A stretch of DNA of 32,000 nt from Candidatus Baldrarchaeum yapensis (GCA_016840465.1 JAEOSH010000011.1:1-32000); one strand, 5' to 3'. Positions 1,313 through 25,023 are shown, numbered from the stretch's first letter. Notes: generated by a model from the sequence alone, not told the origin. Program-made: numbers and translations.

Positions 1313-4300
1313 TCCGTGGCGGTATTAGCATTACAGCAGCCATTGATGCAAGTAGGGATCCTAGGAATGCTATTAGCGAGAGTGTTTTTGCTTCCTTTGG
1401 CAATTTTACGTAAATGATGGTGAAAGAGGCATCATACCCCTCCGCTGCGGCCATAATCGTTATGGGGAGTCCGTCTCGAGGTATTTCGCTCACTCTTATG
1501 GACACGATGTATGTATCGTTTTCGTGAAGAGTTGCAGTGGTGCGCTCTCGGAAGTCTCCGGTCCATGCGAGTACTGTTGCATTTTCGCAGATGCTGGATT
1601 CAGAGGCTAAAACCTCTACCTTTATTTTTGCAACACCACCCCTGATCACTGGTATTGAGATCACTTCGATGTTTTTGATTTTTAATGGTTGTAAGAAAGC
1701 CCACATCAATATGTTTTCCATGAATAGAGTCATGTTGTCTCTGTCGGGCGATGCGGCCATAAATAACATCTTTCCGAGAAAGTATCGGCCAGCTAGTATT
1801 ATCGGCCTTCCTGATTTGTCATACGCCAACACCGACAGATTATGATGATAATTTGCAAAGCAACCATAATATGGGACCTCTGTGATGTTATTTGGATACG
1901 AAAAGATCGGATGTTCGGACAGAAGATCTGCGTAGTTAGCTATCCCATTAGTCGGTTTTGCCGTGACCTGAAGCGGTAGCCAGTCGATATTTGTGTTATA
2001 TGCTCCGAGTATTATTAGAATTCCTCCCATTCTCACGAACTCTTCGAGTTTATCGGCGTATTGCCTAAGATTTTCATCAAAAGTATTAACAATTCCGCTC
2101 TCTACGATTATCACTCTATGTATTTGGAGATTTTCCATGAGGGAGGAGAGTTCATGCTCGATCGAGTATTCTGAGAACGATATTTGCAGAGTTTTGTTAA
2201 TTTCCTCTAGAAGTTTTATGAGGTATCCGCATTTCTCGCTGTAAAGCGCTGCGTATGTTGTCAGTTTGTAGTCGGGAAGATGACCGCCCACGCTAATGAA
2301 TTTTGGTTGCACGAGTTCAGGTTTGGGAGTATTAGGTGTATAAACTTGCAACAACGGATCTCCGAAAAGAACGAACGAAAATGAATAATCATAGCCGTAA
2401 GTTTCTTCCAGGTATATTGGACCCGCAATTCTTGTTAGCGCGCTGAGAGCCTCACCCACCCGGGCTCTCTGTGTAATATGATGGTTCATTTTAACGTCAA
2501 GCCATGCTGCGGGTTCAAATCCCACGGTACGTAGTGGTGCGATGACAAGGGACGCGCCATGCTTGAATAGCGTGTACGGAAGGTTTGACGCACCCACGGT
2601 ACATGCGAGTATTAAGATTACTGTTCCATGTAGGTTTTCCAGGTAGGCATCCAAGTATTCGGCTGATACTATGCGGCAGTTTTCGGGTGGCGGATTAACT
2701 ATTCCGTTCACGCCATCGCTGTAATAGGATTTGTTTTCAAAGTAAAATAAGAGAACTCCTTCAGCATTAGGCCGTACTCCGAATGCGCCACCGTGAGTCG
2801 AGATTATCCAAAGTGTGGGGCCCTCATTTGCGCGGTAAATTACTTCTGTATATCCTATCTGGTAGAGCGGTGTGAATCCTCCATTGACAATCGTTACATT
2901 AACATCCTTGAATTCACTTATTTTCTCATCGGCAAAAGTGCCGTTTTCGAGGTATGCGAGAAATGATAAGAGAGCCTTATCCTTGTTCTTATTGCCCGAA
3001 GCGAGAGCGGGATATAAGGCCTCACGCATTACGAATGCCACTAGTTCTTCACAGGTATATCCGGAAATTCTTCCGACGGGGAATGTTCCAAGAATTGATC
3101 TGTCAATGCTTGGTTCTACCGTCTCTAATGGTGCGATTATAACTATGCTTTTCGGTTTTTGACTCATCAAGCGGGATATTGTCTTGTTAAACTCTTGCGC
3201 TAATCTTTTCATGAGGTAATAATGGGGGACCAGGTAATCGTAGGTATGTGTGGAATCGATATAACCCTCGTATCCGTCGGGGCTTGTTTGCAGTCTAAAA
3301 GTTGCCCATGCGGCATGAATCCAGTCGAGGAATGTTCTGTTTACCGCAATAATGGGTGCACGATGATAAGCCCCCAAGATTGCAGCAGCAGGTATGCATA
3401 TTGGCTCGGGGGCTACTAATATCATTGCCTCTGGGGTTGTGAGATTTAACAAGTAATTGAGGTATGTGCTTACACTCTTTATTATGGTTACTTGAGCATT
3501 TGGGATTGCGTTATGAATTTTCTCCACTAATGAGGTCGAGCATATGTTGTAAATGTCCATTAGCACTACTCTTTTGGTATGCAGTTTGTTCATGGCGTCG
3601 ATTACCGATTCGGGTATATCGTTACATAATACGTACATGAGGGGGGCATTAAGAAATGAAGAGAGAATTGCCGCATTTGCGGAGTTTAGAAGCCATTTTA
3701 ATGCGATTGTGTCGTTTCTTTTAGCCAATGAGATGTTTATGTAGCAGGGAAGGGACGTGATATTGTTCTTGGACCCGATAAGCGCCGTCCAAGTACCTGG
3801 TATCGGTTTATATATCTCAATGTGTTCGAATGTTCCCGTATCGTTGGCCGAAATTCCTGATAAGAGACCATTTGGGCTTATTAAGAACAGATCTAGGTCT
3901 ATTCTCTCGTCGGTCCATTCAAGGGTGACATTTAGCCAGAGCGTCGAGTTATCCACGAGAATTTCCTCTCTGATTCCGGGGTACAGAGTTATGATAATAT
4001 TATTATCACTATATGTGTAGCCTTCCAAGACTTCGAACTTATAGGTGCCAGGCACCGTTGATGGAAACATGAAAGAGGAGTTGGGAACCAATGCATATGA
4101 GATTTCAATACCATTAGGATCACTTATGACGAATCCTATGTCCTTGGTGAGGGATCCTTCTATCCACGAGACGTTACTATCGATTTCAAATGCGCCAGGG
4201 GGGTAATTTATGAGTTTTGTTCTTCGAAGCATGTTTTTAAGCGTGATTTTACACACATTCGTGATTGTTACCTCTTGTAAGGTTTGTTCCTTCAATGGTG

Positions 4301-4865
4301 CTGGTGCAAGTACAACATATTCCGATGAGAACCAATCATAGGTTGCAAGAAGTGCAGACATGTTCTGCAAGTCGCTTTCCCGTAGGATGGAGGTTAAAGA
4401 ATTACTGAGATATTTATTCAGGCTGGTAGGTGGACTCTTCCCCGATAGAGTGAGCACTATTGTTCTCCTGCTTACTCCTTCCTGCGAACATGTGGAGACC
4501 CAGTCATCTAGAAGATATTGCTCTGGTATTCCGCCGTAATACATAATAATAGGCGATATATATGTTTTGTTTGTTGCCGGGTCATGGAATATCGAGAGGG
4601 GGATAGAGGAGATTAGGAGGAGTTCATCGAGAAGAGAGTTTCGGTTTGAGAGCACTATTATCTCGCGTGAAAAGAACGTCACATTATCCTGGTTACGTGA
4701 TGTACCTTCCACGGGCATGAGGTATGTGCGAATCGACATAAGAGAGGATGCCGAGGCCACCGGAAGGATATACGCAACCGATAATACCAACAGTATCAGG
4801 ATACTCGTTTGGAGCATTCTGGCCATAGCCCGTCTAGAGTGTTTGTGCCTGAGCAGGAGAGGCAT
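1275..4865 (-). CDS. Large secreted, C-terminally membrane-anchored protein: cell-wall-binding-2-like repeats, PPC-like beta domains, peptidase C25 (gingipain)-like catalytic domain, class I GATase-like domain, Ig-like domain
   Basis: N-terminal signal (ILILLVLSVAYILPVASA) and C-terminal TM (LSLIAFLGSLLASMAAVMLI). C25-type motifs PVGRI, STHGG, ILACTVG, LFGDP; PPC-like LEWTDERIDLDLFLISPNG...PGTW. Overlaps the coaBC 3' end by 38 nt (convergent). Confidence 0.72.
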   Translation of the reverse strand: MPLLLRHKHSRRAMARMLQTSILILLVLSVAYILPVASASSLMSIRTYLMPVEGTSRNQDNVTFFSREIIVLSNRNSLLDELLLISSIPLSIFHDPATNKTYISPIIMYYGGIPEQYLLDDWVSTCSQEGVSRRTIVLTLSGKSPPTSLNKYLSNSLTSILRESDLQNMSALLATYDWFSSEYVVLAPAPLKEQTLQEVTITNVCKITLKNMLRRTKLINYPPGAFEIDSNVSWIEGSLTKDIGFVISDPNGIEISYALVPNSSFMFPSTVPGTYKFEVLEGYTYSDNNIIITLYPGIREEILVDNSTLWLNVTLEWTDERIDLDLFLISPNGLLSGISANDTGTFEHIEIYKPIPGTWTALIGSKNNITSLPCYINISLAKRNDTIALKWLLNSANAAILSSFLNAPLMYVLCNDIPESVIDAMNKLHTKRVVLMDIYNICSTSLVEKIHNAIPNAQVTIIKSVSTYLNYLLNLTTPEAMILVAPEPICIPAAAILGAYHRAPIIAVNRTFLDWIHAAWATFRLQTSPDGYEGYIDSTHTYDYLVPHYYLMKRLAQEFNKTISRLMSQKPKSIVIIAPLETVEPSIDRSILGTFPVGRISGYTCEELVAFVMREALYPALASGNKNKDKALLSFLAYLENGTFADEKISEFKDVNVTIVNGGFTPLYQIGYTEVIYRANEGPTLWIISTHGGAFGVRPNAEGVLLFYFENKSYYSDGVNGIVNPPPENCRIVSAEYLDAYLENLHGTVILILACTVGASNLPYTLFKHGASLVIAPLRTVGFEPAAWLDVKMNHHITQRARVGEALSALTRIAGPIYLEETYGYDYSFSFVLFGDPLLQVYTPNTPKPELVQPKFISVGGHLPDYKLTTYAALYSEKCGYLIKLLEEINKTLQISFSEYSIEHELSSLMENLQIHRVIIVESGIVNTFDENLRQYADKLEEFVRMGGILIILGAYNTNIDWLPLQVTAKPTNGIANYADLLSEHPIFSYPNNITEVPYYGCFANYHHNLSVLAYDKSGRPIILAGRYFLGKMLFMAASPDRDNMTLFMENILMWAFLQPLKIKNIEVISIPVIRGGVAKIKVEVLASESSICENATVLAWTGDFRERTTATLHENDTYIVSIRVSEIPRDGLPITIMAAAEGYDASFTIIYVKLPKEAKTLSLIAFLGSLLASMAAVMLIPPRITRREAYSSPEA

Positions 4866-4948
4866 GTAGTAATATCCGGTGGACCACTAAATTATTTTTA
4901 TGGGTAACGGACAATAAGTATGGTTACGAAGGGGGTTGGTGATGGACA

Positions 4949-5185
4949 ATGAGCGGAGAGGTAGAGTATAGTGTTAAGGCGATAAGGACCGTTATGAGGG
5001 AGTATCAAGAGAGGCTTATCGAGATATTAAGGAAGTATGGCGTTTCGTCGATAAGGGAATTCCGCGAGATGGTTATGAGAGGGAAAGTGAGAGGGGAGAG
5101 TGCACAAGACGACTTAATAGAGGCTATTTCGATAGGGAGGACGATAAATATACTAAGGGGCATGTTGGAAAGAGCAAGGAAATAA
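4949..5185 (+). CDS. Small helical hypothetical protein (78 aa), resembling archaeal antitoxin-like small proteins
   Basis: GGTGA SD 6 nt before ATG 4949; occupies an otherwise empty gap; pattern KYGVSSIREFREMVMRG...DDLIE. The family resemblance is from memory only. Confidence 0.6.
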   Translation: MSGEVEYSVKAIRTVMREYQERLIEILRKYGVSSIREFREMVMRGKVRGESAQDDLIEAISIGRTINILRGMLERARK

Positions 5186-5353
5186 TATGGCTAGTTTGGT
5201 GGGCATAGAACGTTTTGTTTTCAAAAAGGACATGTACTTTTAGAATAGAACCAAATCTGCCCATAAGTGGCGCAACTTGTTCGGGAGAAAATTATCCGAA
5301 TCGGTTTAATTCTGAAAATGATGTGTCTGGTCTAATGTGATCAAGTGAAAAAC

Positions 5354-5361
5354 TTTAAAAT
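5354..5361 (+). promoter_or_regulatory. Candidate TATA box (TTTAAAAT) with A-rich BRE-like sequence upstream of speD
   Basis: GAAAAAC-TTTAAAAT lies about 75 nt before the speD ATG at 5435. Confidence 0.4.
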
Positions 5362-5434
5362 TGGAATATGTAGGATTACATGCCAACGTCTACATACAAA
5401 TTATGGTAAAAAGAGATCTAAGGAGAGATCGGCA

Positions 5435-5848
5435 ATGAAGGGATTAGGGTGGCATGTAATTGCGGAACTTTCCGGAGTGGATCCAAAGGTTCTTGACGAT
5501 GAGCAGTTATTGATCAAAATAATGGTCGAGGCTGCGAAAAAGGCAGGGCTTACGGTACTTGCAACGAAAACCCACAAGTTTTCACCGCAGGGAGTCAGTG
5601 CGGTTGTAATAGTTTCAGAAAGTCATCTCTTCATACATACGTGGCCGGAGTTCGGATACGCCGCGTTAGATGTCTTCAGCTGTAAGGACGAAGAGAGTAC
5701 ATGGACGGCGTACAATGAAATTGTCAAAAAGTTGCGGCCACGCGGCGTACAGGTGATAATGATAAAGCGTGGAATGTTACAGAGGCAGGAACTGCCAGTG
5801 CCCCCGCTTGGGCAGGAGGGTTATCAAATTGAGCAGTTGCAGCGATGA
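5435..5848 (+). CDS. speD: Pyruvoyl-dependent S-adenosylmethionine decarboxylase proenzyme (SpeD/SpeH family; arginine decarboxylase paralogue not excluded)
   Basis: GWHVIAEL start, HKFSPQGVSAVVIVSESH self-cleavage motif, IHTWPEFGYAALDVFSC. True start is probably ATG 5435 after AAGGAG, not the ORF-track start at 5345. Confidence 0.9.
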   Translation: MKGLGWHVIAELSGVDPKVLDDEQLLIKIMVEAAKKAGLTVLATKTHKFSPQGVSAVVIVSESHLFIHTWPEFGYAALDVFSCKDEESTWTAYNEIVKKLRPRGVQVIMIKRGMLQRQELPVPPLGQEGYQIEQLQR

Positions 5849-6014
5849 TGAAGATGCGCAACTGAGAAGCAATGTAATTACAGAGATAATTCACAGAATC
5901 GAAAGGATGTTTTGGTTATTTGGGAGTATATATGAGGATAATGTAAACAATGTAAACTTTGTATAAGAATTGTATTGTTAAGTCTACTTTTAGTGCTCTT
6001 GATACCCATCTATT

Positions 6015-6620
6015 CTATCTTGATGAAAGGGCAATTCTCTCGATTTCGTCTTTCCTTCGGATGGCATAACTTCTGGAGTCGCCCATAGCGGCGTATATTA
6101 TTTCGTCCGCAAGGCACTCCTCTATTGGCTTCACATTATTAAATGCCGCAAGTGTTGCTCCCTGTACGAGAAAGCGTAGTGCCAAGTCAACTCTTCTTTG
6201 TGGAGCAACGTCGACCGCTACATGGTATCGTATTCCACCGTAGGTGACGGTAGTTGTTTCCTCGCGTGGAGCGGCATTCTCTATTGCGCGTACGAGCACC
6301 TGGATGGGGTTTTCACCGGTCTTTAGGTGTATGATTTCAAATGCCGCCTTAACGATATTCATCGCTTTATGCTTTTTACCGGAGCATCTTCCCTTCTTAA
6401 GGACCCTTCCACCACGTCCCTTGGCGAGACCGGGGTTCATGAGCTTGTTTATCAATCGTTCAACTATGGGGACTTCTGCCTTTCTAAACCTAGTTTTAGC
6501 ATGTCTTCCACACGTGTGAGGTATGAAAACGGGTTTGAGGCATATATACCGCTTGAGCCCGGGATCCCTTACTTCTATTCCTTCAAAGCTCCACTTTCCG
6601 AATAGTTTTATTTCCGTCAT
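6015..6620 (-). CDS. rps7: 30S ribosomal protein uS7 (archaeal type)
   Basis: KLFGKW, VEVRDPGL-like, [58 protein letters not shown]; GGTGA SD upstream. Confidence 0.98.
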
Positions 6621-6643
6621 CAGATCATCACCTTAGGTGAGCG

Positions 6644-9016
6644 TCATGGCATCCTCCTAAGCAAGTTCTCTATCACTTTTTTAACTTTTACCAAATTGTC
6701 CTCAACGACGATTATATTATCCATTCCATATTCCCTCACCACGCGATCCAATTTCTTTGCGTTTTTCTTATCAGTAACTATGACAAAGAAGGAGGTGTTG
6801 GTGTTTGCATTAATATATCGTCGTATCATCGATAGGTACTGATTTATTTGAACACGTGAGTTGACATGAGAGGGTAGTACCTTAAGGAGGATCCTTCCCT
6901 CATCTATTATCAGATCTACGAGATCTCCTTCGATGTTCTCCTCATACACTATTCCAGTCTGCCATAGACTTTGTTTAATGGATTCCAAGAGATCGTTATA
7001 TGTGCTATCTTGCTGTAATAAGCTTTCAGCAGACGCTTCGTCAACCTCTATGGTGTCATTAGGACTATCTTCTCTTTCTCCGTCCATAAGCAGAGCAGGA
7101 AAGTATGTCTTCATATACCTTTTAAGTTCCGGTTTTTCTATTACGGGAAGTTCAAGCTTGTTTATCATATATACTCCATGAAATTCCACCGATTTTCTGT
7201 CTTTTATTCTCATAATCATTACACTTTCCTCGTCGACATATGAGGAGATGCTTTCGTCAATATTTATTGGAAAAATTTCGTGAGTTGCCGCGAGAGTCTC
7301 CCCGTCTAAAAACACAACAACGGGCGAAAAATCCACAAGCGCAGATACAAATACCGGCACCAGCATTATCGTGACCCTGGCCTTATCGAGCCATTTCGTT
7401 GCAATAGCAGGTATGTTATCGATTATTAGGAGAATGTTGCCATCATTAACTGCACTGAATAGTTCTATGAATGCGTGTAGAATGTTTATAAGAGTCTTTG
7501 GCGGGACTTCCCATTTCAACTCGTTGACGATTATCACTACATCTTGATTTTTCAAAACATCTGTGAGATCATTCTTTTTCTGGTTAAGGAATACGTTCCG
7601 TATGAAGTTTAGAAGTTTAGAGTTATAATCTGGCACTTCGCCTTTGTGAATTTCATGGAGCAACGATATCACTTCTTCGGTTGTAAAGTTGTTACTTGAA
7701 AGCATTCGCTCGAGTATTTTAGATTCTTCATGTTCATGTAGGTCAAAGAGCATACGCAATATCTTTGCTTTGCTTTCTGCATTGATTTGAAGTTTTAGCA
7801 AGTTAAAAGAGATGCCTGGGGATTGTATCGAGAGATCGATAGTAATGATGGGATTTTCCATCAACTCCAATATTCCGGATAGGTCGCCAAATGGATCTAT
7901 GAGCAGAAAACTTGCTTTCCATTTGCGCTTAATAGCGGATATGAGTGCTGGTAATAGAGCCTTCCACTTACTTCTATTCGTTCCGCATACTACTACACAC
8001 TGAAAGTTCGCGGTATTTATTACGTTGTTAAGTGTATCGTTAAGCGCGACAGACACATGCGCCCCATCAGTGATTTGTTCCTGGTCATCAGACAGAGAAA
8101 TGCTTAAAGTTATGGATGGATGCATGCTCTTTGTCTTTGTGGACATTTTTCCAATTAACGGAAGTCTGCATAAGATCCTGCCTATATTCCTCGTAATTTC
8201 CTTCGATGAGAGGAATTCATATGATGAATCTTCATTAAAGATTTCAAAGGGCGAATTCTCGGTCTCCTGCCCCGCCGACTTTGATATTAAAACCTTATAT
8301 TCGGAAAATAGCCATTTTTTCCTCATTCTTGCAAGCGAAACCACATGATGGCAGTTTGCATTCTGTTCCGGTAACTTAAACATTACTTCACGAGATTTGT
8401 GGTTTTTATCCTTAATAAGTACCCTAATGCGCACTGCTTCGTCCGAAGTCTTTACCGTACACGTGTTTTTTCCACATTTTTTGATCTCTTTGACAGCACC
8501 TCCGACGATCTTCCACCAAGTATTCAATAGCTTTCTACTGCTCATAATGGATGCATGTCCGAGTAGTTCATAGAGTAGTTTTTCGACGGCCTCCTTGATA
8601 CGTTTCACCTTATCGATGCAACTGTATTCATCACTTGAAATTGCCCCCGTTAAAATCAGCAAAGCATTTTCGTTTCCACTCTGAGCATATTCAACTGCGA
8701 TCCAAGAATCTGTCAGCAACATGTTACTCAAATCTTCTAGCTTTAATTTTATACATTTATTTTCCGGTGGTGGTGACAATTTTACCTCGTATATCGATAT
8801 TACTGCGCATTTTCTTTTACCCTTCCCCTTCAGTATTAAGTACTCATTTCTAACAAAAAACGTCCTTATCGAGGTTAAATATCCTTTACTAACAGTAAGA
8901 AGGAAAAACACAAGCAATGATATGCTTAGAAGTAGGGTTAGCGGGTCACAGAGCACACTGTAGACCATCTGGAGGAAATTTTTCGATGTGGACTCGAAGG
9001 TTTCTATCTGCATCAT
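6644..9016 (-). CDS. Membrane-anchored hypothetical protein (790 aa) with a degenerate HerA/VirB4/TrwB-like P-loop domain and a possible C-terminal PD-(D/E)xK-like domain
   Basis: Single N-terminal TM; ordered motifs CVVVCGTNRSKW, FLLIDPFGD, ISFNLL, LLIIDNI match the HerA/FtsK-superfamily layout. The ORF is clearly real from its length; the fold call is inferred. Confidence 0.55.
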   Translation of the reverse strand: MMQIETFESTSKNFLQMVYSVLCDPLTLLLSISLLVFFLLTVSKGYLTSIRTFFVRNEYLILKGKGKRKCAVISIYEVKLSPPPENKCIKLKLEDLSNMLLTDSWIAVEYAQSGNENALLILTGAISSDEYSCIDKVKRIKEAVEKLLYELLGHASIMSSRKLLNTWWKIVGGAVKEIKKCGKNTCTVKTSDEAVRIRVLIKDKNHKSREVMFKLPEQNANCHHVVSLARMRKKWLFSEYKVLISKSAGQETENSPFEIFNEDSSYEFLSSKEITRNIGRILCRLPLIGKMSTKTKSMHPSITLSISLSDDQEQITDGAHVSVALNDTLNNVINTANFQCVVVCGTNRSKWKALLPALISAIKRKWKASFLLIDPFGDLSGILELMENPIITIDLSIQSPGISFNLLKLQINAESKAKILRMLFDLHEHEESKILERMLSSNNFTTEEVISLLHEIHKGEVPDYNSKLLNFIRNVFLNQKKNDLTDVLKNQDVVIIVNELKWEVPPKTLINILHAFIELFSAVNDGNILLIIDNIPAIATKWLDKARVTIMLVPVFVSALVDFSPVVVFLDGETLAATHEIFPINIDESISSYVDEESVMIMRIKDRKSVEFHGVYMINKLELPVIEKPELKRYMKTYFPALLMDGEREDSPNDTIEVDEASAESLLQQDSTYNDLLESIKQSLWQTGIVYEENIEGDLVDLIIDEGRILLKVLPSHVNSRVQINQYLSMIRRYINANTNTSFFVIVTDKKNAKKLDRVVREYGMDNIIVVEDNLVKVKKVIENLLRRMP

Positions 9017-9041
9017 TCCCTTATTGTGTTCTTCAGATTAG

Positions 9042-9048
9042 TATAAAA
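9042..9048 (-). promoter_or_regulatory. Candidate TATA box (TTTTATA) for a leaderless transcript of the 790-aa gene (possibly also rps7)
   Basis: Sits in the only gap over 25 nt in the minus-strand run (9017-9069) and ends about 26 nt before ATG 9016. Confidence 0.55.
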
Positions 9049-9069
9049 GGTCGTACTCGGCCTTTACGC

Positions 9070-10200
9070 TCATTCACGTCTATGTGCAATTTTTGAGACC
9101 AATAACAACAGCATTACAATCGGTACTAGGAGAAATACTGTAAGTTCGGGTATAAGGGCCTCCACACTTTCTGTGAGAGGCGTGGATCCCCACTTTTCAA
9201 TAATAATTTTCGGAAAATAAACAATTGCATATGTTATCGTTAAGAGCAAAGGTATCCTTAATGGAAGATCCTTAAACAGCGAAAGTAGCATTCTTCTTTC
9301 TTCCGGCGGAGTTATACGTGGCGCCAAGTATATCTTTATTCTGGGATCCTTTCGCTGAAGATCCTTTAAATAAGCCGAGGCTCTTTTCAGCACTCTCTGC
9401 CGCCCAATTTCGTATTTACCTTTTCGCGTTCTTCGCTCTATTAACTCTCTTAGATAATGTATCGCGTCGATAGTTAAAAGTGGTCGGCGAGGGATTATCA
9501 TCTGAGGTTTCTCTGAAATTTTTTCTTTAAATCGAAGCAACTCATTCACCTGCCTCTCTATCCTACGGCTTCTCTTCATAGATTTCTCGAAAATCTCGTC
9601 AACATATGATGAGCGAAATGACATCTCTAGCCCCACATATGAGATGACCGCTAAGAGTACTCCCATTAGCGGATCGCTGTACTCTATTTTCAGGTTTTCA
9701 AACGGAATCCCGATGCGCACACATATCATTGGAAATAAGATCAGTAGATAAATGCTCAAAAAGGATAGAATTGCCCCTCTTACTGACCCGATATACGCGA
9801 ATGCTACTACCCCTAAGATCCCTATAATTATGCAAAATTGAATGAGAAATATTGGCGCATTTGCATAAAACTGTTGCAAATCAAATCTTACTTCTGCTGG
9901 ATGAGGAAGCCATAGAGAAATAAAATTTTGATAAAATTCATTAACTTCCTCCATAGAAACAGAGGTTCCATCACCCATTATTTGTACTGCAGCAAACATG
10001 ACGAGGATGGCAAGCCCTAGCCCTGTCAGCAGTAAAAATTCGTAAATGTAGAAGATACCCAACTTTAGCAATGAAACTATGAGATTTACCGTTACCGATA
10101 TGTCAAAAAACGTCTCAGGAATTCTTCGTAAGAGCATATACCACGATATTAAAAAACAAATAAGAGCAATTGTCCTAAGCAATATTCGCGAGATCTGCAT
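9070..10200 (-). CDS. Polytopic membrane protein (about 7-8 TM segments with a central basic cytoplasmic region), MoxR-operon associated
   Basis: Several 18-25 aa hydrophobic stretches; starts 3 nt after the DUF58 gene stop. Confidence 0.75.
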   Translation of the reverse strand: MQISRILLRTIALICFLISWYMLLRRIPETFFDISVTVNLIVSLLKLGIFYIYEFLLLTGLGLAILVMFAAVQIMGDGTSVSMEEVNEFYQNFISLWLPHPAEVRFDLQQFYANAPIFLIQFCIIIGILGVVAFAYIGSVRGAILSFLSIYLLILFPMICVRIGIPFENLKIEYSDPLMGVLLAVISYVGLEMSFRSSYVDEIFEKSMKRSRRIERQVNELLRFKEKISEKPQMIIPRRPLLTIDAIHYLRELIERRTRKGKYEIGRQRVLKRASAYLKDLQRKDPRIKIYLAPRITPPEERRMLLSLFKDLPLRIPLLLTITYAIVYFPKIIIEKWGSTPLTESVEALIPELTVFLLVPIVMLLLLVSKIAHRRE

Positions 10201-10203
10201 CCC

Positions 10204-11526
10204 TTACACCTGCGCGAGACCCCTCATCTTCATTTTCAAATACTCGGAAATCACCGCAGGGATACAGTCATCGGGACCCACATTCACCACCGCTACACCG
10301 TATTTTTCTATTTCACGTGCTACTGCTCTTCGTTTCTCCCACATCTCTATTAAAAGCGCCTCGGCGAGTGCCCTTTCCACGGGAGACAGTTCCTCGGCAC
10401 TCACCTCAAACCATGGACCAAATGGGGAAATTACCACAACGCTGTGTCCTCTTGCAACTGCTAACTTTATACCCTCTAAAATGAATGAAGATGGCGCCTC
10501 TAGGTCCGTAAATATCAGGAAAAGAGTGCGCCTTTTCAGTCTGCTGATCGCGTATTCTATAGCATTCGCCAAGTTTGAACGTCCTCCCGCGCTGACCTTT
10601 GCTAAGACATCTAGGATGTCGTAAAATTGTTTTTCGCTCGATTTGGGTTTAATGAACTCATGAACTCTGTCTGAGAACACGCACAGACCAACATTGTCCT
10701 TACGCTCTAATGCCATTTTCACTAGTGTCACAATGGCCCTTATTGAATATTCCAGTTTGTTCTCCTCTGGTGGACCCACAGCCATCGACTTGCTACTATC
10801 CAAAAATATCATTATTTCCACATTTCGTTCACTCTCAAATTCTTTCACCATTAGTTTGCCAGTTCTAGCGGTTGCTTTCCAGTCTATTTTTCTGAACTCA
10901 TCCCCCACTTCATACTCTCTTATCATCAAAAACTCCATACCTATTCCCTTTTGCTTAGTGCTGTGAACCCCATACTCCATCCCTATAAATCTCGCTCTTG
11001 ACAGAATATCTAACCTCTTTATTTCCTCGTAGGATGGATAGACAGTGATTGTGGTAATTGAGGGAATTTCCCTTTCTGCCCAGAAAAATCCCAATCTGTC
11101 TTTTATTACTAATCTTATTGGGCCTATCGCGTACGTGCCGCGCATTTTTGGATATAAAACGTAAGAATATGTAAATGATGCTCCTGGAGGAAGGTTTGCA
11201 ACAGCGACGTTGTCTCCAGCAATTACTTCGAAGACTTCAGGAATGTTATCCCTTATCTCCACTAAATCATAAGCATATCTGCTCCTATTTTCGATTGTGA
11301 CCTTTATATTTACAAAATCTCCTGCGAACACCTTGTCCTTATCTAAAATCCTCATGACGATAATATCTGCGAAAGATACCGTATAGTAAAAGAGAGGCAT
11401 CGTTACTGCTATGGATAGGATTAATAAGGTTCCAATAAACACGAAGAGCAGTTCGGATAGCGATAACCCCATTATGAAGAGGAAAATCCCGAGAACCGTA
11501 ATTGCTCTTCCGCGAGGGGCCATCAT
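10204..11526 (-). CDS. DUF58 / von Willebrand factor A domain protein (MoxR partner)
   Basis: N-terminal TM pair and Ig-like region; EFLMIREYEVGDEFRKIDWKATAR DUF58 signature; MIDAS-like LDSSKS. Confidence 0.9.
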   Translation of the reverse strand: MMAPRGRAITVLGIFLFIMGLSLSELLFVFIGTLLILSIAVTMPLFYYTVSFADIIVMRILDKDKVFAGDFVNIKVTIENRSRYAYDLVEIRDNIPEVFEVIAGDNVAVANLPPGASFTYSYVLYPKMRGTYAIGPIRLVIKDRLGFFWAEREIPSITTITVYPSYEEIKRLDILSRARFIGMEYGVHSTKQKGIGMEFLMIREYEVGDEFRKIDWKATARTGKLMVKEFESERNVEIMIFLDSSKSMAVGPPEENKLEYSIRAIVTLVKMALERKDNVGLCVFSDRVHEFIKPKSSEKQFYDILDVLAKVSAGGRSNLANAIEYAISRLKRRTLFLIFTDLEAPSSFILEGIKLAVARGHSVVVISPFGPWFEVSAEELSPVERALAEALLIEMWEKRRAVAREIEKYGVAVVNVGPDDCIPAVISEYLKMKMRGLAQV

Positions 11527-11539
11527 ATGCCTTCTCCCT

Positions 11540-12499
11540 CTACGCCGGAACGCTTACCTCTTCTAGAATCTCCTCGATGATTCTCTTAACGCTAACACCT
11601 TCAAGTTCGGCTTCAGGCTTCAAGATTAGCCTATGGTTGAGAACGTTGAATGCCAGCGCCTTTATATCGTCTGGTGTAACGTAATCTCGACCATGAAGTA
11701 TTGCTCTCGCTTTGGATGCGTACAAAAAGACAATAGATGCACGAGGGCTTGCTCCCAGCAATATTAGGGGGTGATTTCGCGTTCTCACAACGATATCCCT
11801 TATGTAGTAAAGGATGCTGTCGTCGACGTATACGTCTCTAATTGCTCGTTGCATTGCAACAACGAGTTTCGGTGAGGCCACTGTTTCCACGTTTTCCCCA
11901 ACATACGCGTTTTTTCTCCGAAGAATTTCAACTTCTTCTTCTGCAGATGGATAATCTAGTATAAGGCGGAAAAAGAACCTATCGACCTGAGCTTCTGGTA
12001 GGGGGTATGTTCCCTCTAATTCTATAGGGTTTTGCGTCGCTATTACAATGAAAGGTGTGGGTAGCGGGTATGTTCTGCCCTCTATCGTCACCTGCCTCTC
12101 CTGCATACATTCTAGTAGAGCCGATTGCGTTTTTGGAGGTGCTCGGTTTATCTCATCGGCTAATATTACGTTTGCAAAAATAGGGCCCTTCTTAAGATAA
12201 AAGCGCCCGGTCTCCTTGTCGTATACATTTACACCAATAATATCTGATGGCAGTAGATCCGGCGTAAATTGTATTCGCTTAAACTCGCATCCTAACGTCC
12301 TAGCAAACGTTTTGGCTATCAGCGTCTTCGCAATCCCAGGAACCCCCTCCAGCAACACGTGACCCTCGGCAAGTAGTGCAATCAATATGTTTTCGAGTAT
12401 GTCGCGTTTGCCGACGACAACCTTGCCGATCTCATTTAGTATTCTTCTTGTTATTATTCTTACTTCCTTTAACGTGAGTACGGGAAGTTCTTCACCCAA
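11540..12499 (-). CDS. moxR: MoxR family AAA+ ATPase
   Basis: [14 protein letters not shown] (Walker A), [30 protein letters not shown] (Walker B), [31 protein letters not shown] start after GGTGAGG. Confidence 0.96.
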
Positions 12500-13811
12500 C
12501 TTTCCTCACCAACTCGTCAAGAAACTTTATGTCGAAGTAGTATTTAAGAAAGTCTTCTCTTCCTATCTGCCTCCGCCCTCTTAACACGTCCCTTATGCCC
12601 CTTAATGCCTCTCTGATTTTTCTGAGTGTTTGAGGATCGACCTTGCGACTCAAAAAGTCTAAGAGATATTCTTCCTTTAGATCTTGTACTTTAAGTATCT
12701 TTGAAGCTTCTTTCCTGAAATACTCGTACAATGTTCTTAAAGCCTCCCTATACATGCCATATCTTTCATAAATATGAAGTTTTGCCACAAAGCTTCCGAA
12801 CTTTCCTCTCCTTCTAAATGTTGGTCTCTTTATCTTTATCCCACGTCTCCTAAGAACCCTTAATGCAAAGACTGATGCTATTACCGGAAAAATTAACGCA
12901 AGATATGGCGTCGAGGTGAACCATATAAGGGGCTTTAAAAAAAGTCCGCACACAGTCACATCCGAAAATCCCTCCCAATTGAGATGGCTTTCATCGAAGA
13001 TTATGGTAACATTCGTTTTGCCGTGTGCCAGCCATTTTATTACATTTAACGCAAAGACGGCATTATCTCTGCGAGTTATCATGTCATTTATGAAAACGCT
13101 CGGATCGCTAATTAAGACTACTCTTCCACGACCTATTTCTGCCACCGCGACTACCGGGAGCGGTCCTGGAATATCCGTTCCATTGAGTATTCCGTAGGGC
13201 TGGTGATCCATATCGACATCGAGCCAACTGTACCGTGAACTCATCGCTACTACTTGGAACACTCCACCACCAGTTGTGTTTGTCAATGCCATTTTAATAG
13301 CCGAGGGATAATTGAAAAGAATTTCGTGTACATCCTCAAAAATGGGGTGCGGGAGGAAGTTCCTTATTATTGGAAGTACGGGATTCTTGTCATAAGACCC
13401 GGCATCCATCAATAAATATCCATAAAAACTCACCTCAGGAAACGTTTGTAATAATAAAGAGTTTGCACTACCGAAATCATCCGCTATTAATACTCCTCCC
13501 CCATTTATTATGAACGGTATAATTCCAAAGATTCCATCATCAGGAGTGTACATTTTTGACGGGCCTATTATCACAATAACGCAGTTCTTGTTGAGTTTAT
13601 TAGCAACACTTAACGATGATACTACAACCTTCACCTTGTAACCTCTCTCCTCCAGCATTTCTTTAAATTTCGAACAGCCATCCCAGTCTTTGTTGAATAC
13701 GGAAAATGTTGGAGTTTTCCCTGGTTTAAAGATCAATACGGAAAGCATAGGCATTAACGCAACAACGAATGCTAACGAAAGAAGCATAATAGAAACACTA
13801 ACTCTTGGCAA
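12492..13811 (-). CDS. DUF4350-type (class I GATase-like) membrane-anchored protein
   Basis: N-terminal [56 protein letters not shown], second TM, cytoplasmic tail. ORF is open to 13862; TTG 13811 after GGGAGG is the likelier start. Confidence 0.82.
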
Positions 13812-16800
13812 GTGAAAGAATCCCTCCCGTAACTTCCTTGTAAATCTTGGAGAGTGCCTCAACGAAAGATCTGTACTCGTCCACTCCTATAGATTTTATT
13901 CCATATCGGGCACGTTCAAATGTCCTCACGATTCTCAATAACATGTCATACCCTAATCCGTACCTTTCGGATATTCTGCGCGCAAATTCGGCGGGAGTTT
14001 CGCCACGAGACCTCTTTACATGATAATATAAGAGTATAAGCTCCTCATAGAGTTTATATCCCTCGAGTACCGCCTCTCTAAATCTCCTTCTTCTAACAAG
14101 GTCGTTTATCCTATCTACCCTCTTCTGCAAATGCATCAGGATGCCTTTCTTCTTTTCTTCCCGCTTTATACGCTTCTTAAAGTAATATGCAACCATAGAG
14201 ACAGCCGCCACCGTGGCAACCACATATACGGCTATCTCCACGGTACCTGAGATCCCCAACGGCGCTCCCTCTGCGGTAACGTTGACAATAAACTCACCGG
14301 AGGAAAAAATCTTCGTTCCGTTGTAAAGTTTACATCTCAATTCGGCTCTTATTGAGAGCACGTATGAGCGCCTTCCCAAATCTTCTACGACGTACGTGCA
14401 AATATATGTACCGTTTCCGATATTTGTTGCCCGGATTTCGGTATTATTGACATAAATAATAACAAGTCTGCCGTCGACTGGCGTGCTGTTATCCGTAACT
14501 ACGTTAACTACTATGGGTATCTTATCTCCCGGCCTTGCACTCTTATTGGCATGAAGAGTTATCGTCACATTCGAAAAAATGTCAAATGCCTTCTGGTAGT
14601 TTGAAGGGAGATAGTAGAGGCTTCCCATGTATAGTACTGAGAGGAAGAACCTTCCATTTTTACCATCGGCCGATGGCGCATTACACGTTATGTTGAAATG
14701 TCCGTAAGCATCTGTGGTTGTGTTCTTTTCACCAACATAGATAACAGCACCGCTAATCGGAGTGCCTCTGTCATCGGTCAATCTTCCTTCTACGAGTACC
14801 TCCTCACCCTCGAGATAGGGTGGCGGCGGTGTGACATTAACGTTGATCTCCGTCCGTGCGTTTATTATGATATAATGTTCCATTGCTAGTGTCAGCTTTA
14901 TTGTTTCATTTGAAAACAACAAAATGGTGTAATTTCCGACCTCGACCTCATAGGGTATTGTCACGTTCGCGATAAACTGTCCAGACTCGTTTGTGTAAAA
15001 TACTTGCCCCATGGATGTCTCTTTTCCGGTTTTCGCATTAATCAGTTCTACAGATATAGGAGCGTTCGAAACCGGATCATCAGTTTCGTTCAACACTTCT
15101 CCAAAAAGTATTAGACTTTCCTCTCCTCTCGTCACGTTACTGTCTTGAACATCAAAGATACACGTGGCATTCATGACTACTGCGACCTTTTTCTGAATAT
15201 TTGCAAGTTTCACGTAAGGATGCCCCGGGTCGAACGTTACATTCAACAAATAGTATCCGATCGGCTGGTCAATCGGGACAAAAACGTTCCAAAGGCATCT
15301 GTTCGTATTCGAGATCGTCTTATTCTTATTTATAAAACTTAATGTGAAAGTACCGTTTATGATCGTGTTGTTGTCGAGAACGACCGATGCGTTCACTGAG
15401 AACGTGTGATTTCTAAATACATGATCCTCCGCGTTGACTGACAGCTTACATGTTGCGAAAATGGTGACATTGACGAATGCCTTTGTCGAATTGAGTAACG
15501 TTACTCCATTTACCACATATCCCGGGAAGTATAACGTCATATTTGCTGGGCCCAAACTCTCTGATATGCTTACATACATTGCCCCACCGAATTTGCCATC
15601 GTTCGTCAATTGTAGAGTTCTGCCCTTAACTCCATTGAGAATAATCCAAATTTCGGAATTTACGCCTATAACGCCCATTTCGGTACCATTCTTTTTATCA
15701 TATATCCACTTGTCCACTAGCATTCCGCCGATTTCCAGTTGTTTCCCTCGAATAACCTCACTGTTGTTTCGGGGCTTATCGCATACTATTAGAACGTCCC
15801 CCGTGAAAAATAATGATGTCTGTCCAGATGCTATTATATACTTCGTTCCATCACTCGTTACTACCCAGTCCGCACGAAATGTGTGATTACCGACCACATA
15901 ATTGTCCAGAAAAACATCATTAAATACAGCATTCCCGAAATTATTCGTGACATTTTTTCCTAGTACTCTACTCACGGAGCTATCATAAAATTCCAAGATT
16001 TCGTCTCGTATTTTCCATACAATAGTAGGGTTTTCTGCTATTAACGTACCATTTAACTGAAAAGAGTGTCCTCTTTCCACGTAAGTTGTTCTTAAATCGG
16101 ATTGTGCAGAAAGGAGGAGTGCCACCTGAGGATTTACAACGTAAGGGTCGCAGACCCCATTGGTCATGAGGTAGGAGTAAATATACGGGGACGGATCAAA
16201 GGGGATCCAAGCCCCCCTTATCACACCATTCTCTTCGTAAGGAATCCAAACCTCCACCCAGAAGTGCAGATGGTACGCATATACTTTTCTCACATCACCC
16301 TCTTTAACTCCTGGGAGAAATCCCAGAACGACCCTTGCAGGGATCTTTAGTAGGCGTAATGTTATCGCGTAAGCGGTCGCAAAGTGTAAAGATATTCCAC
16401 TCTTCCTCCTAATAAACCAAGCAACCCAATCTTCATCGCTAGTGGGCTTATCAGACGATCCGTGGTAAAGCATCTCTAAATCATATGAAAAGACTTCCTG
16501 ATAGAATAAAAGAACCTTTAGTGCAATTTCGAAAGTCGAATTCCCCTCAAGTCTGCTAAAGGTGGAAGTGATGAAGGATTTTACACTCTCTGGAAGGTCA
16601 TTCTCAGGTATTTGGAGATATTGTTTGAGATCTTCCCCGATAGTCGTTTCATTTGGAGGTAAGGAATGCATGGAAATTTTTGTCAGGTTTATTTCAACAT
16701 AATTAACCTTATATTCCAAATAACTTGTTCCGCTACTCGAGAACGACGCATCTAGTATCACAGCGCCGTAATTGTCTCTAGATATCGCTACTTCCAGCGC

Positions 16801-17427
16801 ATCGGTTATATTGATGCTATTTGCTACCATTTGGGGGTAGCCGCTTTCGTTCACCAGACATGGAATATAGGAGATGTATTGAGTGGCGTGTGTGAAGTTC
16901 ATGCGAATAGTGTAGGTGGAGAAAGGTGCGGAAACGCCACCGAAAATGTAAGTAGTATTGTCCGATATCAACCAAGTCCCTGGGTCATCTCCAACCCTAC
17001 CAGTATAATAATCCATGGCATAGAATCTCCAATATCTCGGAGGATCTGCCGGATATACTTCAAAAATTAGCGAATCGGCATTTGAGATACCCTCATAGGT
17101 AAGAAGATCGAGCCAATCGATTGCTGAGATGTCCTCCAGCGTTGGCGATAGCCCTTGGACTATTATCTGTATCCACCAGTTACCAGTTGTCGCGTTCCAT
17201 ACAGATATGTCGACTGATGAGGGTGGGATTTCATCGTACGGTACCTGTTGTTCCACTTGAGCGCGGGCCGGACTTATGAGGATTGAGAAAGGTACGATTG
17301 ATGATGTTAGTATTAATACCGTAAGAACTGCCGATAGGAAGTACCTTCTGGAAAATGATGTTGGCAAATGCTCGTCACCCATATTTTTCATGCCTATACT
17401 GTTTTTCAAACTTTTTGGCACTTGCAT
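13798..17427 (-). CDS. Large surface protein with transglutaminase-like (TgpA-type) domain, Ig-like repeats, TM anchor and DUF4129-like cytoplasmic tail
   Basis: N-terminal hydrophobic segment; YWRFYAMDYYTG; GISLHFATA...IPARVVLGF...HFWVEVW...WIPFDPSP; many N-x-S/T sequons; C-terminal TM followed by ETPAEF...FERARYG. Start may be 17427, 17391 or 17382. Confidence 0.85.
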   Translation of the reverse strand: MQVPKSLKNSIGMKNMGDEHLPTSFSRRYFLSAVLTVLILTSSIVPFSILISPARAQVEQQVPYDEIPPSSVDISVWNATTGNWWIQIIVQGLSPTLEDISAIDWLDLLTYEGISNADSLIFEVYPADPPRYWRFYAMDYYTGRVGDDPGTWLISDNTTYIFGGVSAPFSTYTIRMNFTHATQYISYIPCLVNESGYPQMVANSINITDALEVAISRDNYGAVILDASFSSSGTSYLEYKVNYVEINLTKISMHSLPPNETTIGEDLKQYLQIPENDLPESVKSFITSTFSRLEGNSTFEIALKVLLFYQEVFSYDLEMLYHGSSDKPTSDEDWVAWFIRRKSGISLHFATAYAITLRLLKIPARVVLGFLPGVKEGDVRKVYAYHLHFWVEVWIPYEENGVIRGAWIPFDPSPYIYSYLMTNGVCDPYVVNPQVALLLSAQSDLRTTYVERGHSFQLNGTLIAENPTIVWKIRDEILEFYDSSVSRVLGKNVTNNFGNAVFNDVFLDNYVVGNHTFRADWVVTSDGTKYIIASGQTSLFFTGDVLIVCDKPRNNSEVIRGKQLEIGGMLVDKWIYDKKNGTEMGVIGVNSEIWIILNGVKGRTLQLTNDGKFGGAMYVSISESLGPANMTLYFPGYVVNGVTLLNSTKAFVNVTIFATCKLSVNAEDHVFRNHTFSVNASVVLDNNTIINGTFTLSFINKNKTISNTNRCLWNVFVPIDQPIGYYLLNVTFDPGHPYVKLANIQKKVAVVMNATCIFDVQDSNVTRGEESLILFGEVLNETDDPVSNAPISVELINAKTGKETSMGQVFYTNESGQFIANVTIPYEVEVGNYTILLFSNETIKLTLAMEHYIIINARTEINVNVTPPPPYLEGEEVLVEGRLTDDRGTPISGAVIYVGEKNTTTDAYGHFNITCNAPSADGKNGRFFLSVLYMGSLYYLPSNYQKAFDIFSNVTITLHANKSARPGDKIPIVVNVVTDNSTPVDGRLVIIYVNNTEIRATNIGNGTYICTYVVEDLGRRSYVLSIRAELRCKLYNGTKIFSSGEFIVNVTAEGAPLGISGTVEIAVYVVATVAAVSMVAYYFKKRIKREEKKKGILMHLQKRVDRINDLVRRRRFREAVLEGYKLYEELILLYYHVKRSRGETPAEFARRISERYGLGYDMLLRIVRTFERARYGIKSIGVDEYRSFVEALSKIYKEVTGGILSLAKS

Positions 17428-17436
17428 TCCGATATC

Positions 17437-17715
17437 TTAACCGCGTAAAGATCTCCTTCTTGAGAAACGCTCGATGAATGACCTTATCGCGATCTCTTTC
17501 TCAAAATATTCGTCGAGATCCCGTGACAATTTCTCCTCTATGACCTCCTTTACTGCTGTTTTTATTAACAACGGGAAGTCTATTTCTCTAATTGCTCTTC
17601 TCAGTTCTTCTTTTATTATCCGTTCGAGATACTCCTTTATCTCGTCAAAAATTTGCCTTTTTAAAAACTCAGAAGATCGAGAGTCAATGTTTCCACTCGA
17701 TGAGGATTGCGACAT
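17437..17715 (-). CDS. Small acidic/basic helical hypothetical protein (92 aa)
   Basis: Fills the gap exactly between PAC2 (10 nt) and the transglutaminase gene (9 nt); amphipathic helical pattern. Confidence 0.7.
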   Translation of the reverse strand: MSQSSSSGNIDSRSSEFLKRQIFDEIKEYLERIIKEELRRAIREIDFPLLIKTAVKEVIEEKLSRDLDEYFEKEIAIRSFIERFSRRRSLRG

Positions 17716-17725
17716 AGCTTTGCAC

Positions 17726-18553
17726 CTAGCTTATGTACTCTGGCGGCTTCCTCTCCTCTACTTTCCTTGTAACTCTTCTTTCCGCTTGCAGAAATCTTCT
17801 CTTCATTGCCTCCGCCAACTTAACAACTCTCTCGGCCTCGCGGTGGAGAGCAGATGTGTTGATATCCAAGTTAAACAGTTTACATATCACATCCACTAAT
17901 GCCTTAGAGGCCGCTGGATCCTTTGGTATCCCTACAAGCCTATCAATCATGTAGCAGGCTTCTCCTAAGAATATGAGACCGTCAGCGCCGTAAAGCGTGC
18001 TTGCAATTATGGGGACTAAACCGTTCATTCCAGTAATTACACCTTCCCTTAATACCTGTACGTGGGATACTCGAGATGTAACAAATGATATTATTTCGTT
18101 GGACGTCCCCGTTACGTACACCTTGGGATTCAATGTGGGTTCATCGATAGGGGATGCTGCAAGAGCAATTACCATCTTTGCTCCCATACTCACAACCGTT
18201 CTTGCCACGAAGTCGGATAACATGTTCATTCCTATTACTGACGTTGGTTGCCACTCCCCACTGATAAATATGAAATCATTTTCAAGTTTATCATTCTTCC
18301 AGACATAAATTCCGCAGGCGGGCGCTAAAAGCCTACCTTCCAAGGTGACCTTGACGTTTGGTGGGAAATCCGCAGAATATATTTCTGCAACTTTGACGGC
18401 ATTTGTATTTTTTATCAAAAAATCAACTGCTGTTTTTCCAGCAAGGGCGATGCCGGGCATCCCTTGTATACACACTGGGTTCTTTAATTTCAGCGAATCA
18501 AGTTGTGTGAGTTCTCTCATCTGCACCTCTAAAAGTACGCTTTTCTCCTCCAT
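17726..18553 (-). CDS. PAC2 family (archaeal proteasome assembly chaperone-like) protein
   Basis: IQGMPGIALAGKTAVDFLI, AEIYSADFPPNV, GEWQP, ITGMNGL, DPAASKALV, C-terminal EYIS. Confidence 0.9.
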   Translation of the reverse strand: MEEKSVLLEVQMRELTQLDSLKLKNPVCIQGMPGIALAGKTAVDFLIKNTNAVKVAEIYSADFPPNVKVTLEGRLLAPACGIYVWKNDKLENDFIFISGEWQPTSVIGMNMLSDFVARTVVSMGAKMVIALAASPIDEPTLNPKVYVTGTSNEIISFVTSRVSHVQVLREGVITGMNGLVPIIASTLYGADGLIFLGEACYMIDRLVGIPKDPAASKALVDVICKLFNLDINTSALHREAERVVKLAEAMKRRFLQAERRVTRKVEERKPPEYIS

Positions 18554-18932: not shown

Positions 18933-19313
18933 TTGTCGACAGAAATAGAGAGGGCGAGACAACTGCTACAAAATTTGGTTTCAACATCACCGAACATCGA
19001 AATTTGCACTCTGATATCAAGTCAAGGACTGCCCATGATCACAATCGGAAGTTCTCAAGTCGATGACCGCGTTATTGCCGTAACGACACTCACTCTTTTC
19101 TCTGTGGCCAGAAAGGCGTTAAATGAGTTGAAGAGGGGCGATATTAAGAAGATGTTGATAGAGGGAGAGAATGAGTATGTTATATTAGCAAGTATTAATA
19201 ATCAGGGCTTCCTTGTGGCAATTACTAGGAGCAAGAACGTAAACTTGGGACTTATACTCATGAGCATGTCCCGGGCGGTTGAGGAGTTGACCAAAATACT
19301 GACTGCCAAATAG
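18933..19313 (+). CDS. Roadblock/LC7 (MglB/LAMTOR-like) domain protein
   Basis: 126 aa; LISSQGLPM, RKALNELKRGDIKKMLIEGENEYVIL, VNLGLILMSM are typical roadblock motifs; GGTGA SD 6 nt before TTG. Confidence 0.9.
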   Translation: MSTEIERARQLLQNLVSTSPNIEICTLISSQGLPMITIGSSQVDDRVIAVTTLTLFSVARKALNELKRGDIKKMLIEGENEYVILASINNQGFLVAITRSKNVNLGLILMSMSRAVEELTKILTAK

Positions 19314-22972: not shown

Positions 22973-22973
22973 A

Positions 22974-25022: not shown

Positions 25023-25023
25023 G

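Follow-up and report, generated by a model that had tools for sequence, protein, structure and literature searches.

Five adjoining genes on the minus strand of a 32,000-nucleotide stretch of DNA from Candidatus Baldrarchaeum yapensis (GCA_016840465.1, JAEOSH010000011.1:1-32000; the whole stretch is here referred to as the window) form a cell-envelope module that is carried by nearly all sampled Asgard archaea. In the order of reading, they encode a surface glycoprotein with a transglutaminase-like head and a DUF4129 tail, a DUF4350 protein, a MoxR AAA+ ATPase, a DUF58 adaptor with a VWA domain, and a membrane protein of no named family, here called MEM. A first-pass annotation of the window had grouped nine co-oriented genes, separated by 10 nt, 9 nt, two overlaps, 13, 3, 53 and 23 nt, into one protein-remodelling system. 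Nine minus-strand open reading frames (ORFs) with these very distances do lie between 18553 and 6015, but only five of the genes travel together across Asgard relatives. The organism belongs to the Baldrarchaeota order (Baldr), DNA of which has come from hydrothermal and sediment metagenomes, and its closest MoxR (74% identical) is that of Ca. Baldrarchaeota MAG_95 (genome G002), ranked in the same order. The window is covered in full, but for 3 differences, by one public contig, which may be the source sample. A literature search combining Asgard with MoxR or with transglutaminase, of incomplete coverage, found no description of the operon.

Arrangement and spread of the five-gene core

Around MoxR or MEM, approximately 55 Asgard loci of 5-20 kb each were fetched, and Thermoproteota (251 genomes) was the sole outgroup phylum surveyed. 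Since related genomes are not independent, all locus and genome counts describe spread only, with no statistical test. In most Asgard families, the order is surface protein or DUF4129 tail, DUF4350, MoxR, DUF58 and MEM, with gaps mostly below 50 nt. DUF58 stands immediately 5' of MEM at 50 of 53 loci; of the other three, two read DUF58-MoxR-MEM and the last is truncated. The DUF4129 gene or domain directly precedes DUF4350 whether it is fused to an ectodomain, reduced to a gene with only transmembrane (TM) segments beside the tail (Wukong-type and some Thor-type genomes), or present as an extra free soluble copy (Loki- and Heimdall-type genomes), and the ectodomain itself ranges from absent to more than 2000 aa.

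The spread of the module is best seen in MEM, a profile of which matches 176 of 201 Asgard genomes and 83 of the 86 high-quality ones, nearly always in a single copy. The same search found none in the 251 Thermoproteota genomes; a single Nitrososphaerales genome gave a match of 22.5 bits that covers the TM part only and contains a stop, which was judged to be due to chance. Among 1.84 billion proteins, the profile recovered 136 clusters, and it was required for this purpose, as a single-sequence search retrieved MEM itself alone. The farthest named matches are from Njordarchaeia or from sequences labelled Korarchaeota. Three distant matches had enough context, all of them after DUF58 and two of them in a bare MoxR-DUF58-MEM unit. 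In a DUF58 tree, sequences cluster by family with strong support, the window sequence falling on a long branch with the other Baldr genomes, which is consistent with vertical inheritance.

Variant arrangements were also encountered. A second cassette in the same genome (G000:C68, ~2200-8300) encodes a 645-aa glycosylated protein with two TM segments and a weak DUF4129 tail, a DUF4350 protein, a MoxR (52% identical), a divergent DUF58 and a 244-aa protein with three TM segments, and it has neither a transglutaminase head nor MEM. Three Heimdall-type loci of family f5 (L152, L165, L166) have, immediately before the main cassette, another unit of MoxR, DUF58 and a membrane protein, and in one f23 genome (L150:~12200-16900), a 1108-aa protein with seven TM segments precedes DUF58-MEM in place of MoxR and DUF4350.

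Core proteins, their topology and a predicted DUF58-MEM complex

The surface glycoprotein comprises an N-terminal hydrophobic segment (residues 33-51), the transglutaminase-like head (300-412), an Ig-like stalk of ~600 aa in which Pfam recognises carboxypeptidase-regulatory-like Ig domains, a TM segment (1065-1083) and the cytoplasmic DUF4129 tail, and it contains 39 sequons. Across the ectodomains of 17 surface orthologues, 594 sequons were counted versus 223 expected (2.67x), with 4% lysine plus arginine (K+R); the DUF4350 ectodomain has 5% K+R. The Ig and VWA parts of DUF58 hold 14-15% K+R, with 8 sequons in VWA versus 20 expected (0.39), and a cytoplasmic helical region of MEM (200-312) holds 18% K+R, with 1 sequon versus 11.5 expected. 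On this composition, DUF58, being rich in K+R and poor in sequons, faces the cytoplasm with MoxR, and the transglutaminase head lies outside. The same sequon and K+R composition supports the trans-envelope layout proposed in the first-pass annotation, with MoxR/VWA in the cytoplasm and glycosylated surface proteins, and TM prediction bore out its count of five products with TM segments. A cytoplasmic DUF58 is contrary to the 'likely secreted' label of PMC5898192, which calls into question the topology given in that paper and not the kinship. An outward transglutaminase head is likewise contrary to the cytoplasmic protease model of PMC3495828, and is similar to the situation in TgpA.

The head lacks the Cys-His-Asp triad and has S346-H388-D411 instead, with S346 aligned to the catalytic Cys of Pseudomonas aeruginosa TgpA (6g49, E 7.6e-6) and the His and Asp retained. 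The Cys-to-Ser substitution emphasised earlier is therefore real, but Ser is one of many substitutions at this position: among 40 Asgard domains, the residue is Ser in 13, Cys in 4, Gly and Pro in 6 each, and another one in the remaining 11, the most divergent rows of the alignment being of uncertain placement. Natural Cys-His-Asp orthologues are those of L040 and L045. Ser-His-Asp occurs in 11/40 orthologues, and Gly-His-Asp is equally fixed in Hermod-type genomes. AGC is the Ser codon of families f3 and f20, and TCN that of the window and of families f2 and f6, so that Cys probably changed to Ser at least twice. Several lineages have no head beside the cassette. With Cys surviving in only 4 of the 40 orthologues, the alignment points to a pseudo-enzyme, repeated loss of catalysis being simpler than a Ser enzyme. 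An active Ser-dependent enzyme is possible; for CCDC135 and menin, the Ser-type transglutaminase-like (TGL) domain has been put forward as possibly active (PMC3495828).

In the DUF4129 tail, T1144, E1147 and E1171 are conserved and the motifs T-x-x-E and E-x-A-R-Y are kept; a solved relative of the tail was looked for and none was found. The DUF4350 protein consists of a GldG/IFT52 GIFT-like ectodomain, two TM segments and a degenerate cytoplasmic tail that lacks both motifs. Nevertheless, HHalign relates this tail to the DUF4129 profile (probability 94%, E 1.2e-7), in line with the earlier claim that both tails are DUF4129-like. The protein also gives ABC_transp_aux matches and a weak match to IFT52 (5fmr, E 0.0011). 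MoxR has intact Walker A and B motifs and matches 2r44 (E 2e-95) as well as midasin. The likenesses of DUF4350 to IFT52 and of MoxR to midasin are known family relationships. DUF58 has an N-terminal TM hairpin, a cytoplasmic Ig-like domain (BatD/DUF11-like, 61-142) and a VWA domain (VWA_2, 238-339), whose metal ion-dependent adhesion site (MIDAS) reads D243-S245-S247 and D341, plus E343. Across 33 orthologues, D243, S/T247 and D341 are present in all 33 and S245 in 27, and E343 is invariant.

A complex of DUF58, Mg and MEM was predicted with a score of 0.67 (three runs, 0.66-0.72), as compared to 0.01 for the best of three controls; the mark set for this score is reached by 58 of 80 solved pairs and by 2 of 110 mismatched pairs, a calibration that is only rough because own alignments and an Mg ion were used. 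The runs share at least 80% of their contacts, with a partner pLDDT (predicted local distance difference test) of at least 67. In the model, the DUF58 TM hairpin packs on the MEM TM helices, and the Ig domain and C-terminal part of DUF58 pack on the MEM cytoplasmic helices; MIDAS residues are absent from the listed interface residues. No solved DUF58 complex was found, and recall of a similar known complex is unlikely because the Protein Data Bank holds distant VWA relatives only. Within the same region of MEM, conservation is higher at the interface residues (0.45) than elsewhere (0.33), to which burial could contribute. This modelling, new here together with its controls, supports a DUF58-MEM complex with a free metal site.

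The most conserved motif of MEM (S345, E352, P360) lies outside the predicted DUF58 interface. Four residues in or beside TM helices (E192, R315, S345, E352) are conserved in at least 90% of 109 sequences; a second binding site and ion coupling are both possible roles for them. The MEM model (pLDDT 81) matched generic four-helix bundles (Z 8-10) in fold searches, with claudin/TARP-like rows among many unrelated ones and an atlas TM score of at most 0.31 by query, from which a new fold is not implied. A DUF4129-like nature of its cytoplasmic part was ruled out (probability 0.3%).

Layout of the locus and neighbouring genes

The family assignments made earlier are confirmed by Pfam, which gives PAC2, Transglut_core with DUF4129, DUF4350, AAA_3 (MoxR), DUF58 with VWA_2, and uS7. 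No significant Pfam family matches the orphan, MEM or the 790-aa product, and NCBIfam has none for the last either. The probable start of DUF4350 is TTG 13811, by which it would overlap the preceding gene by 14 nt, the length also found in Baldr orthologues. Between the orphan and the transglutaminase gene, the figure of 9 nt assumes the first of three nearby ATGs; the corresponding gap in the relative G002 is 194 nt.

Table 1. Features of the cassette and its flanks, in order of reading (window coordinates).
Feature	Position	Strand	Basis or remark
PAC2-family proteasome assembly chaperone, 275 aa, not core	17726..18553	-	PF09754 E 9e-29
Orphan, 92-aa helical protein, not core	17437..17715	-	Baldr genomes only
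Surface glycoprotein, 1209 aa, core	13798..17427	-	Transglut_core, Ig domains, DUF4129
DUF4350 protein, core	12492..13811	-	PF14258 E 1e-17; ORF open up to 13862
MoxR AAA+ ATPase, 319 aa, core	11540..12499	-	PF07726 E 6e-67
DUF58 adaptor, 440 aa, core	10204..11526	-	DUF58 + VWA_2
MEM, 376 aa, ~6 TM, no named family, core	9070..10200	-	profile spread, predicted complex
TATA-like heptamer, candidate promoter	9042..9048	-	read from sequence
HerA/VirB4/TrwB-like protein, 790 aa, not core	6644..9016	-	language-model features
Ribosomal protein uS7, not core	6015..6620	-	Pfam

The flanking genes do not follow the core. Upstream, 38 loci could be judged, and the neighbour is on the opposite strand at 25 of them, unrelated at 12 and the orphan at 1; downstream, the 53 loci comprise 26 with an opposite-strand gene, 24 with an unrelated one, 3 with uS7 (all of this order) and none with the pseudo-ATPase, as the 790-aa product had been called. 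PAC2 is co-oriented just upstream of the cassette in the window genome and G002 only. It lies within the fetched stretch at 7 loci from three families, adjoining and co-oriented in Baldr only: in f3, an opposite-strand gene stands between it and the core, and in f20, it is several kb away, reversed, and about equally similar to both PAC2 paralogues of the window genome, the second of which is at C61:43846-44625. Of 30 relatives searched, G002 and G004 alone gave an orthologue of the orphan, in both cases ahead of the same gene, and a PopZ-like nature, suspected by eye, had no support from Pfam or the atlas. Because PAC2, the orphan and uS7 adjoin the core in this order only, and the pseudo-ATPase in this genome only, the proteasome link proposed earlier is unsupported; with PAC2 and the orphan heading the cassette in Baldr genomes alone, it was rejected on synteny, which outside Baldr largely unlinks the four genes from the core.

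The 790-aa protein is HerA/TrwB/VirB4-like by language-model features (0.92, 179 shared) and has one N-terminal TM segment. Its putative Walker A motif (341-355, near 345), assigned by position and by eye, is missing the second and third Gly and has Trp for Ser/Thr, and a single-sequence fold model of residues 273-790 reached a pLDDT of 39. No relative was found in 60 related genomes, and with this query, a collection of 5.8 billion proteins returned only the protein itself; with no relative found, it was ruled out as a component of the system. As uS7 directly follows MEM in G001, G002 and G004, the gene is best read, from gene order, as a lineage-specific insertion into the MEM-uS7 junction. 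A related strain at ~87% identity also covers the junction of the 790-aa gene and uS7. Its G+C content at third positions (0.425) is at the 10th-25th percentile of the genome, thus composition shows no sign of recent transfer. The TATA-like heptamer lies 26 nt before the 790-aa start, overlaps the end of a short hairpin, and is a candidate for a separate promoter of the 790-aa gene and uS7. In G002 and G004, AT-rich gaps of 145-173 nt with a common TATA-like motif precede uS7. A sigma-70 promoter scan remained at chance level, the model being unsuited to archaea. In this genome, the uS7 gene is gone from the S12-EF1a cluster, EF-1alpha directly following S12 on contig C94. That cluster (G000:C94 4465-15313) reads rpoH-rpoB-rpoA-L30e-nusA-S12-EF1alpha-S10 without uS7, with an EF-2-like gene convergent just beyond S10.

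Elsewhere in the window, a minus-strand gene (1275-4865) encodes a 1196-aa secreted protein that has a C-terminal anchor, 23 sequons and a weak PPC domain and in which His-Gly 688, Cys 753 and FGDP 834 recall a gingipain/C25-type peptidase by eye, a family that Pfam does not call; the gene is not near the cassette in any relative. A Roadblock/LC7 gene (18933-19313, plus strand) is divergent from PAC2, and the f3, f20 and Wukong-type loci likewise have variously oriented Roadblock genes in the ~10 kb that precede the cassette, which suggests a loose ancestral neighbourhood. On the minus strand, there are further a GINS-MCM-Hel308 replication/repair cluster (20744-25584), ordinary for archaea, and a class II-type ribonucleotide reductase split by an intein with a LAGLIDADG domain (26260-29166).

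Proposed mechanism, rival explanations and kinship to known systems

Composition and homology place the head, the Ig stalk and the DUF4350 ectodomain outside the cell, and the two DUF4129-type tails, the Ig and VWA domains of DUF58, the central helices of MEM, and MoxR inside it. On this layout it is tentatively proposed, with slightly less than an even chance of being right, that a membrane-anchored motor of MoxR, VWA and MEM assembles or releases the surface protein by pulling on its DUF4129 tail. DUF58 would be anchored in the membrane by its TM hairpin, with MEM as a clamp that acts via TM and cytoplasmic helices and, in the model, leaves the MIDAS free. A MoxR hexamer would dock on the VWA adaptor and pull whatever the MIDAS grips, as is assumed here; pulling by MoxR-VWA pairs is established for the family. 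The MIDAS may grip the acidic E1147 or E1171 of the DUF4129 tail, DUF4350 would pair with the surface protein as a co-receptor or chaperone, and ATP-driven pulling would assemble, activate or release the surface complex. The transglutaminase head would act as a non-catalytic binding domain, and PAC2, the orphan, the pseudo-ATPase and uS7 would have no part in the machine. In favour of the proposal speak the constant gene order, the DUF58 tree, the topology, the predicted DUF58-MEM contact with its more conserved MEM residues, the DUF4129 unit ahead of DUF4350 in all its forms, and the MIDAS positions shared by all 33 orthologues.

Several observations weigh against this proposal. MoxR, DUF58 and MEM alone are kept together at four loci (L056, L059, L169, L170), and two Wukong-type loci (L042, L047) have the tail with no ectodomain beside it, so the surface protein cannot be the sole reason for the core. 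The site in DUF58 is not canonical, as the position of the MIDAS Thr is Thr in 8 of 33 orthologues and Ser in the window, and the rough calibration of the complex score counts on the same side. The main alternative, possible if rather doubtful, is that MoxR-DUF58-MEM is a self-contained machine acting on other membrane clients or on MEM, with the surface protein and DUF4350 serving as outside-in sensors via their tails. The three-gene core that stands without surface genes beside it in f14 genomes and among divergent homologues would fit such sensing, as would the conserved S345, E352 and P360 of MEM, which are free for another partner, a catalytically dead head suited to ligand binding, and the role of RavA-ViaA in respiratory processes (PMC12067865). 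Against it, all five genes are tightly coupled in most Asgard families, which suggests one stoichiometric complex, and no other client gene co-occurs at the surveyed loci. Export is the theme of another explanation, in which Ig-vWA is secreted and the membrane proteins form a MoxR-powered conduit (Makarova et al. 2015). It draws on the same parts, i.e., DUF4350, MoxR, Ig-vWA, S-layer-like Ig proteins and 5-TM proteins (PMC5898192), on the resemblance of DUF4350 to GldG, and on the charged residues of MEM conserved in or near the membrane (E192, R315, E352). It is nonetheless improbable: DUF58 has a TM hairpin, a cytoplasmic composition and a predicted contact with the K/R-rich inner helices of MEM, no channel fold stood out in the MEM fold searches, and Sec would suffice because the surface proteins have their own signal or anchor segments.

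Equally little probability is given to the membrane-proximal protease of Zhang and Aravind (2012), with VWA for recruitment, MoxR for unfolding, and the head for cleavage, here as a Ser-His-Asp hydrolase. The 11 of 40 orthologues with this triad, at least two separate Cys-to-Ser changes suggested by codons with His and Asp retained, the possible activity of Ser-type TGL domains noted above, and the in vitro activity of TgpA (PMC3507681) would all suit such an enzyme. However, the head is outside the cell and MoxR inside, the TgpA domain being likewise periplasmic; a single base change turns a Cys codon into one for Ser or Gly; and several lineages do without the head. Other lineages are just as fixed for Gly-His-Asp/Glu (6), Pro (6), Trp, Phe or further residues, hence retention of His and Asp is no mark of catalysis. 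Least probable is the nine-gene system of the first-pass annotation, with PAC2 and the orphan as a link to the proteasome and with the pseudo-ATPase and uS7 as further members. The order PAC2-orphan-core-uS7 is common to the window and G002, and PAC2 recurs in the 7 fetched stretches mentioned, but neighbours are opposite-strand or unrelated at 37 of 38 upstream and 50 of 53 downstream loci, the f3 and f20 copies of PAC2 are separated or distant and reversed, and Baldr relatives themselves have 194 nt before the core (G002) and AT-rich gaps of 145-173 nt after it. PAC2, the orphan, the pseudo-ATPase, uS7 and the Ser nucleophile are local or neutral features that add little.

Among known systems, the module is an Asgard variant that is kin to the arCOG01314 neighbourhood and to the MoxR-vWA-TgpA/YebA operon. 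The neighbourhood of arCOG01314 (DUF4350) was predicted to be a 'putative novel secretion or membrane remodeling complex' (Makarova, Galperin and Koonin 2015, PMC5898192), the secretion being offered as a prediction. It likewise unites an anchored DUF4350 protein, MoxR/COG0714, Ig plus vWA, an Ig-rich surface protein and a multi-TM protein. In the window, DUF4350 also has the N-terminal signal or anchor, the extracellular flavodoxin-like (GldG-like) domain and the C-terminal TM segment described there, MoxR is adjacent, and Ig and vWA domains are in one protein. It differs in that the vWA protein was called secreted, whereas the window DUF58 is membrane-anchored and cytoplasmic, and in that the transglutaminase head and DUF4129 tail have 0 occurrences in the paper. 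The membrane partners described are arCOGs with 2-5 TM segments (arCOG07126, arCOG11232, arCOG03875), whereas MEM was not found in the 251 Thermoproteota genomes; the published analysis did not include Asgard genomes. The MoxR-vWA(DUF58)-YebA/TgpA operon (PMC3495828; PA2875-PA2874-tgpA, PMC3507681) shares MoxR, DUF58/vWA and a membrane-anchored transglutaminase-like protein. TgpA/YebA has 6-8 TM segments and an active Cys triad, whereas the window protein has two hydrophobic segments, its long Ig-like stalk and Ser, and the window adds DUF4350 and MEM. MoxR Proper (MRP) operons with DUF58 (mycobacterial moxR1, bifidobacterial PFNA; PMC12067865) share MoxR followed by DUF58 and a link to exported or surface proteins (MoxR1-RipA; an FN3 protein), and the window differs from these by the lack of a second BatA-type vWA gene, of a kinase and of an FN3 gene. 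For DUF58, the review states that its function in MRP operons, too, is unidentified (PMC12067865).

For the Asgard archaea, an unlikely but far-reaching reading is that the five-gene core is an ancestral, vertically inherited machine on an Asgard-restricted MEM scaffold bound to DUF58, which would erect or remodel some of the surface structures of Ca. Lokiarchaeum ossiferum and would bring together, within a single eukaryote-related lineage, prokaryotic relatives of midasin/dynein (MoxR + VWA), IFT52 (GIFT) and ciliary transglutaminase-like domains. Cryo-tomography of this organism revealed complex unidentified surface structures and no ordered S-layer (PMC9834061). More generally, MoxR-DUF58 operons are common in prokaryotes and their DUF58 has had no assigned partner or role; a predicted partner, MEM, that leaves the metal site free, and two acidic candidate ligands would offer a small, expressible test.

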